A stretch of 18,393 nucleotides of DNA from a virus: the UHGV virus genome UHGV-1280364. One strand, written 5' to 3'. Position numbers and translations under genes: made by a program. Below are positions 3,403-3,732 of the stretch, piece by piece (positions within the stretch are counted from its first letter, which is position 1; the number at the start of each line of letters is the position of its first letter). The notes under the pieces are model-generated. The model worked only from the letters and a program-made list of their open reading frames with translations. It searched no databases and was not told the DNA's origin.

Positions 3403-3732
3403 GTGCTTGAATGGTTTCTGTTGTCTGCATTAGTCGTTTCTGGTTTGGTGTATGAGTATCGAATGCACTATCTAACAAAAAAAATAGGAATTCTAGAAAA
3501 CGAATATTGTGCTCTCAAATCCTCACTGGAACGTGAGCAAGGAGACTTAAAAATCTCTCTGTCTAGCATTGAGCGTTCTATAGAGAGCCTAGAGGATAAG
3601 GTTGATCGTATAAAGAATGAGGATATTCATGATATTAAGGACGACATATCCTTCTTAAAATCTTGGTTGAAAAATGTTGGGAAAATTGCCACATCAACAC
3701 GAGATAAGCTCAATCCATCCATGGATGACTAA
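3403..3732 (+). CDS. Small membrane protein (109 aa): N-terminal transmembrane helix plus coiled coil, function unknown
   Basis: AGGAGG at 3392-3397, 5 nt before a GTG start. Hydrophobic N-terminus LEWFLLSALVVSGLVY followed by a heptad-rich charged region. Its stop directly abuts the convergent gp16-like stop (3733). Confidence 0.55.
   Translation: MLEWFLLSALVVSGLVYEYRMHYLTKKIGILENEYCALKSSLEREQGDLKISLSSIERSIESLEDKVDRIKNEDIHDIKDDISFLKSWLKNVGKIATSTRDKLNPSMDD

Follow-up and report, generated by a model that had tools for sequence, protein, structure and literature searches.

hkcB, a small coiled-coil gene in the sieA slot of P22-like prophages, as a candidate superinfection-exclusion gene

P22-like prophages occur commonly in both E. 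coli and Salmonella, and the locus described here raises the question of what a small gene that faces and directly abuts their ejection-protein gene 16 might do. The gene was found in UHGV virus genome UHGV-1280364, of which the whole stretch of 18,393 nucleotides (the window) was analysed. The window shows, in reverse orientation, the late-operon end of a Lederbergvirus-type (P22-like) prophage, and the gene is an open reading frame (ORF) of 109 amino acids (aa) at 3403-3732 on the plus strand, with a GTG start and a TAA stop. By its sequence this ORF is hkcB, a gene of P22-like prophages that is already known and uncharacterised. From its position and architecture we tentatively propose, with less than even confidence, that HkcB is a superinfection-exclusion protein, an analogue and not a homologue of P22 SieA.

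The assignment to hkcB follows from several comparisons. HK620 HkcB (AAK28903 / NP_112088), CUS-3 hkcB, epsilon34 gp14 and PHROG 5962 all represent the same gene as the window ORF. The HK620-type allele in the window is 97-98% identical to HK620 hkcB in nucleotide sequence (97.6% by megablast) and 96-97% in protein, and the two share the length, the GTG start, the ribosome-binding site (RBS) and a 0-nt convergent junction with gene 16. The window protein matches phrog_5962 over its full length (residues 2-109 on profile positions 2-109 of 109, E 5.6e-60) and differs from the common allele at two amino acids (S8 and Y23). A second allele, with ~50% protein identity, is found in CUS-3, epsilon34 (gene 14) and SEN22. 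The gene has been annotated since 2001 and is functionally blank. In the epsilon34 genome paper the homologue is listed as of unknown function within the "ant moron", the variable non-morphogenetic insert that extends from gene 16 to the tailspike gene (PMC2629481). Our literature search found no function assigned to hkcB, and the SieA paper (PMC10883804) does not mention it.

The HkcB family is small: clustering at 90% identity gives 25 groups, whose members come from E. coli, Salmonella and Klebsiella aerogenes. The full-length HK620-type allele is present in 82 and the epsilon34-type allele in 72 complete E. coli genomes, making ~154 of 5,426 (~3%), always on the chromosome and with clinical isolates among them. 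A scan of species-representative genomes gave no confirmed hkcB locus. When 1.84 billion representatives were searched with a profile, only seven true relatives were added (25-34% identity), and because all of them sit at the same genomic position, the distant homologues offer no functional lead. Searches of Pfam, NCBIfam and PADLOC with HkcB returned sub-threshold coiled-coil noise only; in PADLOC-DB 2.0 no model was significant, the best being DpdH (E 0.027, 12.6 bits) over the coiled-coil stretch.

hkcB is a real protein gene under purifying selection. Against divergent alleles, the ratio of nonsynonymous to synonymous divergence (dN/dS) in the C-terminal 43 codons was 0.14-0.28 at a synonymous divergence (dS) of 0.3-1.2, and in the N-terminal 66 codons it was ~0.2-0.6 where synonymous change was unsaturated. 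All 51 relatives with a placeable start use GTG; since the start positions were found with an RBS pattern, the near-invariant RBS of these 51 loci is partly so by construction. In the window, the Shine-Dalgarno sequence AAGGAGG (3391-3397, plus strand) lies 5 nt 5' of the GTG, within the conserved leader CTAAGGAGGTTGGT. The GC content of hkcB is 37%, against 49% for gene 16.

The slot that hkcB occupies is the sieA slot of P22. In HK620, CUS-3, epsilon34 and each prophage inspected, hkcB is the first gene of the ant moron, lying where the moron adjoins gene 16, in the interval from gene 16 to gene 9, and pointing towards gene 16; in P22 it is sieA that is convergent with gene 16, across a 22-nt gap and with its own promoter. 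The two genes are alike in slot, orientation, little or no spacer to gene 16, an annotated GTG start, a small membrane protein as product and an accessory nature. They differ in sequence, for which no similarity was found (best BLASTP E 4.3), and in build: SieA has 164 aa, several segments with a KD19 hydropathy of at least 1.6 and the motif FxRYPxEAxxFNK, whereas the 109-aa HkcB has a single short hydrophobic segment and a coiled coil and lacks the motif. Indeed, with P22 as the positive control, the SieA motif was found neither in HkcB nor in any of the 74 hkcB loci, and BLASTP of HkcB against SieA, gp16, gp20 and gp7 gave nothing significant. Thus HkcB may work like SieA, but it is not a member of the SieA family. 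SieA, a protein of the inner membrane, blocks injection and does not act by abortive infection (Abi); its gene shows low transcription in lysogens, is up-regulated on induction and is present in only about one third of sequenced P22-like phages (PMC10883804). The mutations by which phages escape SieA fall in the C-terminal portions of gp16 and gp20 (PMC10883804).

This slot holds envelope proteins, namely the multi-transmembrane SieA, HkcB or a 161-aa predicted lipoprotein. The last of these (MKKSLLIIPLLLVGC..., with a Q-rich helical region) was observed in L020 and L021 (2498-2983 in each) and in L087-L089 (3001-3486), and it is present in 186 complete E. coli genomes. It is another candidate exclusion protein. 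It adjoins at least three gp16 C-terminal types.

The original prediction had described HkcB as a protein with a strong RBS, a single N-terminal transmembrane helix and a coiled-coil tail. The RBS is as described above, and the coiled coil is supported in several ways. An AlphaFold2 (AF2) model, made from a shallow alignment, is a single helix over residues 2-103 with a mean pLDDT of 86; hydrophobic residues recur every 3-4 positions from L24 to ~I95, with a/d occupancies of 9/12 and 8/12; and a profile search of the PDB returned coiled coils alone (GCN4, keratin and similar), all at E>0.01. The predicted coil, of about 70 residues or 10 heptads, corresponds to the continuous helix of codons 21-96 (3463-3690, plus strand). 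For the transmembrane helix the support is divided. The N-terminus is apolar in all alleles, and the alleles other than that of the window are clearly hydrophobic there (KD19 1.8-2.7), but the window allele, whose apolar run covers codons 4-17 (WFLLSALVVSGLVY, 3412-3453, plus strand) at the start of the AF2 helix, reaches a KD19 maximum of only 1.35 against the usual transmembrane cut-off of 1.6, and a simple Hessa sum of +2.1 kcal/mol over 17 residues. We consider a membrane-anchoring N-terminal helix to be probable, and marginal in the window allele.

In 7/7 alleles no K or R precedes the hydrophobic segment and 2-4 follow within 15 residues (R20, K26 and K27 in the window allele). Under the positive-inside rule, this charge bias predicts an N-out/C-in topology for HkcB, with a periplasmic stub of 1-3 residues and a cytoplasmic coiled coil. 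Conservation is polarised along the protein: the anchor and the first half of the coil vary among alleles, and the last ~43 residues are near-invariant. This C-terminal module (codons 67-109, 3601-3729, plus strand; DRIKNEDIH...SWLKNVGKIATSTRDKLNPSMDD) contains, after the coiled coil, the motif W-x-x-N-V-G, in which W88, N91, V92 and G93 are invariant even in the relatives with 25-34% identity. The HkcB alignment has no conserved cysteines. On two metagenome contigs of 1.3-1.7 kb (P0022 and P0023), the conserved C-terminal 45 residues were observed on an unrelated, non-hydrophobic N-terminal 60; these are either natural recombinants without the anchor or assembly chimeras.

The hkcB stop codon TAA (3730-3732) directly abuts TTA (3733-3735), the stop codon of gene 16 on the minus strand, so that TAATTA (3730-3735, both strands) is made up of the two stop codons, convergent and without a single nucleotide between them, just as the original prediction had read it. 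Gene 16 (3733-5844, minus strand) encodes a 703-aa ejection or DNA-transfer protein, identified as a gp16 homologue by phrog_770 ('DNA transfer protein', 7.5e-217), by BLASTP with P22 gp16 (33% identity, E 1e-58) and by PF26808 on its homologues. The 0-nt gap was found in 61/62 IMG/VR loci, the sole exception having a premature stop, and in 12/12 loci compared directly, HK620, CUS-3 and epsilon34 included; in the remotest relatives of HkcB the gap is 3-4 nt. The same earlier reading, that the stops leave no room for terminators and that the transcripts would collide, has the anatomy right, but the arrangement is not special. In P22 only 22 nt separate gene 16 from sieA, and since P22 late transcription is thought to cross the region to the tailspike gene, terminator-free abutting stops are expected and ordinary. 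With the late operon silent in a lysogen, transcription from hkcB would just continue into gene 16 in the antisense direction. Once the prophage is induced, late transcription should prevail over that of hkcB: during lytic growth, antiterminated transcripts passing antisense through the gene would be expected to damp its expression.

Every hkcB locus examined (62/62 in IMG/VR and the further loci compared) also has a C-terminal extension of ~45 aa on gp16. In the window it comprises the last ~45 codons of gene 16 (3736-3870, minus strand), and P22 gp16 has no counterpart of it. The extension is constrained at the protein level (dN/dS 0.05-0.15, dS up to 1.2). It is also present in Huey, Louie, Dewey, Bas106 and phiSG1, which have neither hkcB nor any moron, and beside other slot occupants; the moron-free phages indicate that hkcB is dispensable for virion function. 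By comparison, the 161-aa lipoprotein adjoins three different gp16 C-termini, with gaps of 2, 14 and 90 nt, and therefore the linkage of hkcB to the extension is tighter than adjacency in the slot alone would give.

Two other ideas were rejected. A function of the conserved junction block at the RNA level is at odds with its synonymous sites, which have diverged (dS up to 1.2). A likeness between the 7-mers KIATSTR in HkcB and KIATTRS in gp16 has an E of 9 and is not kept in remote relatives, and we ascribe it to chance. Against the RNA-level function, too, a terminator search at the junction gave no terminator-like site downstream; z was -1.8 for the local fold, the consensus structure came to -0.9 kcal/mol without supporting covariation, and no Rfam family was found there.

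hkcB appears to carry its own upstream region. In 45 of the 51 loci the leader TGGTATCCT...CTAAGGAGGTTGGT is kept across at least eight unrelated upstream contexts, and conservation begins exactly at TGGTATCCTG...CAAAACTAAGGAGGTTGGT-GTG regardless of the upstream gene. That gene is the divergent hkcC in HK620, a divergent 139-aa lipoprotein gene in the epsilon34 type, a P63C-domain gene in MB46 (L013), a ClpP-like gene in L008 and a YafO-like gene on the same strand in the window and CUS-3. Within the leader, TGgTATCCT (TGGTATCCT) fits an extended -10 element (TGnTAnnnT) and may be hkcB's own promoter. The window, CUS-3 and two IMG/VR contigs (L025 and L026) have the end of the YafO-like gene in place of this element. 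The same-strand run of the window is headed by a Pmnt-like promoter (TTGAGA-17-TATCAT) with mnt (together 1797-2101, plus strand; mnt itself 1853-2101) and continues through a 199-aa ORF (orf199; 2144-2743, plus strand; phrog_18235, no Pfam match) and a 139-aa ORF of the YafO_toxin family (2961-3380, plus strand; PF13957, 2.2e-11, above the curated cut-off) to hkcB. Judged from the sequence, window hkcB would either share a transcript with mnt, orf199 and the YafO-like gene or be expressed from TTAACT-17-TAAAAT (3355-3383, plus strand), a weak sigma-70-like match of chance-level score inside the upstream gene end.

Taken together, hkcB is an accessory moron gene that is probably expressed from the prophage. 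Exclusion, already suggested in the original prediction, is the role that we favour for it, since such a role would agree with the slot and orientation of the gene, with the probable location of its product in the envelope and with its accessory nature. It is favoured also because hkcB loci have no SieA motif, because hkcB is linked to one gp16 C-terminus and because the sites of escape from SieA lie in the C-termini of gp16 and gp20. It should be kept in mind that exclusion has been demonstrated for SieA, whereas for HkcB it is argued from analogy. If the proposal is right, the N-terminus of HkcB would anchor in the inner membrane with 1-3 residues in the periplasm and the coiled coil in the cytoplasm, and the protein would oligomerise through the coil. 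It would be made at a low level, as the GTG start hints; most phages would transcribe the gene from the extended -10-like element TGGTATCCT that belongs to it, and in the window Pmnt read-through or a weak local promoter would serve. At the inner membrane HkcB might disturb the conduit of gp16 and gp20 through which incoming P22-like phages deliver their DNA; the conserved C-terminal motif could be the contact surface, and the likeliest target would be the ~45-aa extension of gp16.

Several points weigh against the exclusion proposal. In the family libraries, PADLOC, BLASTP and the PDB profile search, HkcB showed no homology to exclusion or defence proteins that have been characterised. How a coiled coil in the cytoplasm would block a periplasmic conduit is less obvious than it is for SieA, and the hydrophobic segment of the window allele is marginal for a transmembrane helix. 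The promoter was assigned purely by sequence conservation. The linkage between hkcB and gp16 could be plain physical linkage, with the junction block inherited as one recombination unit. HK620 and CUS-3, both with hkcB, plaque on standard hosts that are not lysogens, so that nothing published bears on exclusion. A bolder form of the proposal, which we regard as doubtful, is that HkcB founds a new injection-blocking family unrelated to SieA, a bitopic inner-membrane coiled coil whose invariant C-terminal tip recognises the gp16 extension as gp16 emerges at the cytoplasmic face of the membrane. Such recognition would account for the restriction of hkcB to loci with that gp16 subtype, and the variable N-terminal two-thirds, with their several alleles, might then reflect an arms race or oligomer specificity.

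Other roles have to be weighed against exclusion. HkcB could be an Abi or membrane-damaging effector, as the original prediction had also suggested, which would lie inert in the inner membrane, oligomerise on infection (for example upon gp16 insertion) and depolarise or permeabilise the membrane, so that the cell dies before phage release. Small single-pass coiled-coil membrane proteins are indeed typical of holin-like or Abi effectors, a low expression suggested by the GTG start would suit a potentially toxic protein, and a YafO-like toxin gene precedes hkcB in the window. However, the weak resemblance of HkcB to XhlA and to Rz/Rz1-type lysis proteins stays below the curated cut-offs and consists of compositional coiled-coil matches, the protein has only one short hydrophobic segment, weak in the window allele, PADLOC gave no match, and the sole precedent in the slot, SieA, blocks injection and is not Abi (PMC10883804). 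We consider this role unlikely, and to a similar degree a role in lysogenic conversion unrelated to defence, by which HkcB would alter the envelope, division or stress physiology of the host to the benefit of the lysogen. The moron position, the low GC content, the independent leader and the presence in ~3% of complete E. coli genomes, clinical isolates included, would all suit a conversion factor, and an anchor followed by a cytoplasmic coiled coil recalls host scaffolding proteins in architecture alone. Yet the family is confined to P22-like prophages beside one gp16 subtype, which points to a phage-directed role, and it has no similarity to host protein families.

Somewhat less likely still is an accessory role in the lytic cycle in cis, in which HkcB would handle its own gp16 (for instance the extension) or convergent transcription would tune late read-through into the tailspike gene. 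The strict co-occurrence with the extension and the fixed 0-nt junction are what such a role would predict, and sieA is up-regulated on induction (PMC10883804); but phages with the same extension live without hkcB, the constraint is on the protein and not on the nucleotides (dS up to 1.2 at dN/dS ~0.1-0.3), the junction has no conserved RNA structure or terminator, and the antisense orientation of hkcB relative to the late operon rules it out as a late gene. The idea that hkcB is a third component of the toxin-antitoxin-like pair of orf199 and the YafO-like gene, raised in the original prediction, fails as a general property and is very improbable. It fits the window, CUS-3, L025 and L026, in which the three genes are on the same strand, the YafO-like gene ends 22 nt from hkcB and the private leader element is missing. 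Elsewhere the upstream neighbours differ, with the at least eight contexts and the 45/51 independent leaders given above, and hkcB is present without the pair in HK620, epsilon34, SEN22, MB46, L004, L007, L008, L011, L012, L018 and L022. That hkcB is a chance ORF or a decaying functionless remnant, as might be supposed of a small protein with no Pfam family and annotated only as hypothetical, is hardly credible in view of the dN/dS of 0.14-0.28, the intact gene in ~154 E. coli genomes, the conserved start and RBS and the relatives recognisable at the same position down to 25% identity.

Small prophage-expressed envelope proteins that block DNA entry include HK97 gp15, Tuc2009 Sie2009, TP-J34 Ltp and phi80/N15 Cor. 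HkcB resembles them in size, location and genomic logic, but the likeness is of kind only: it had no family-library match to any of the four, and Ltp and Cor are external lipoproteins, whereas the coil of HkcB is predicted to be cytoplasmic. With the Rz-type i-spanins HkcB shares an N-terminal anchor followed by a long coiled coil, and the match to an Rz1-like model is below threshold (13.6 bits against a cut-off of 27). Unlike the i-spanins, hkcB lies in the ant moron and not in a lysis cassette, is antisense to the late operon and has no partner o-spanin; its charges predict N-out/C-in and not the N-in/C-out of Rz, and it has no conserved cysteines. Membership in a YafNO-type module was rejected, since an obligate co-occurrence with a YafO-like gene was not found and most upstream contexts have no such gene.

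No sequence feature of hkcB would surprise a specialist, and the gene stands as a common candidate, open to testing and with a specific predicted target, for a second family of exclusion proteins in P22-like prophages. If HkcB is the counterpart of SieA in the lineages of HK620, CUS-3 and epsilon34, it would provide a second probe, of simpler structure, for the passage of the gp7/gp20/gp16 conduit across the inner membrane, a step that is still poorly understood, and an exclusion role would be relevant to host-range prediction for P22-like phages on lysogens. The strict linkage to one gp16 C-terminal extension makes this a concrete and genetically testable hypothesis. If HkcB is not an exclusion protein, it is an ordinary uncharacterised moron.

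The window is a mosaic in which the HK620-type hkcB (97%) is placed between upstream genes of the CUS-3 type and a gp16 of the CUS-3/epsilon34 type, and, by sequence comparison, hkcB alleles seem to be exchanged as cassettes, with the conserved leader on one side and the conserved C-terminal block on the other. Beyond gene 16, the homologues of gene 20 (5844-7118) and gene 7 (7128-7802) follow on the minus strand.

Within the ant moron, orf199 and the YafO-like gene downstream of mnt look like a toxin-antitoxin-type pair, and in CUS-3 the two overlap by 16 nt. In the window this overlap has been duplicated by an exact 200-nt direct repeat (2590-2789 and 2823-3022, period 233 nt), with both ORFs intact and the overlap lost. 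The 33-nt junction of the repeat (2790-2822) holds an inverted copy of a 36-nt segment just upstream (arms 2517-2552 and 2796-2831). The repeat is absent from CUS-3 and from L025 and L026, which are 99.9% identical, and is thus private to this sequence; it is either a template-switch duplication or an assembly artefact. A further envelope protein of the same moron is the 139-aa predicted lipoprotein (MKRIISVVAGVIMLSGC...) encoded divergently from hkcB in L003 (2261-2680, epsilon34 gene 15), L004, L011 and L012, for which one RefSeq record annotates a peptidase-associated/transthyretin-like domain.

Elsewhere in the window, ant (340-1341) and arc (1604-1825) are on the minus strand, and overlapping Pant/Pmnt-like promoters lie around 1800-1830 on both strands. 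Wedged between arc and ant is a gene for an 89-aa protein (1338-1607, minus strand; phrog_27312), also with a membrane anchor (KD19 2.79) and a coiled coil, which has no P22 gene as a counterpart at that site and no similarity to HkcB by BLASTP; its ATGA-type overlaps at both ends, with arc and ant, make it part of the Pant operon. The sar antisense RNA (1276-1343, plus strand; Rfam RF00262, 90 bits, E 8e-19) faces the start of ant and the end of the 89-aa ORF, and from its presence the P22-type immI circuitry appears to be in place.

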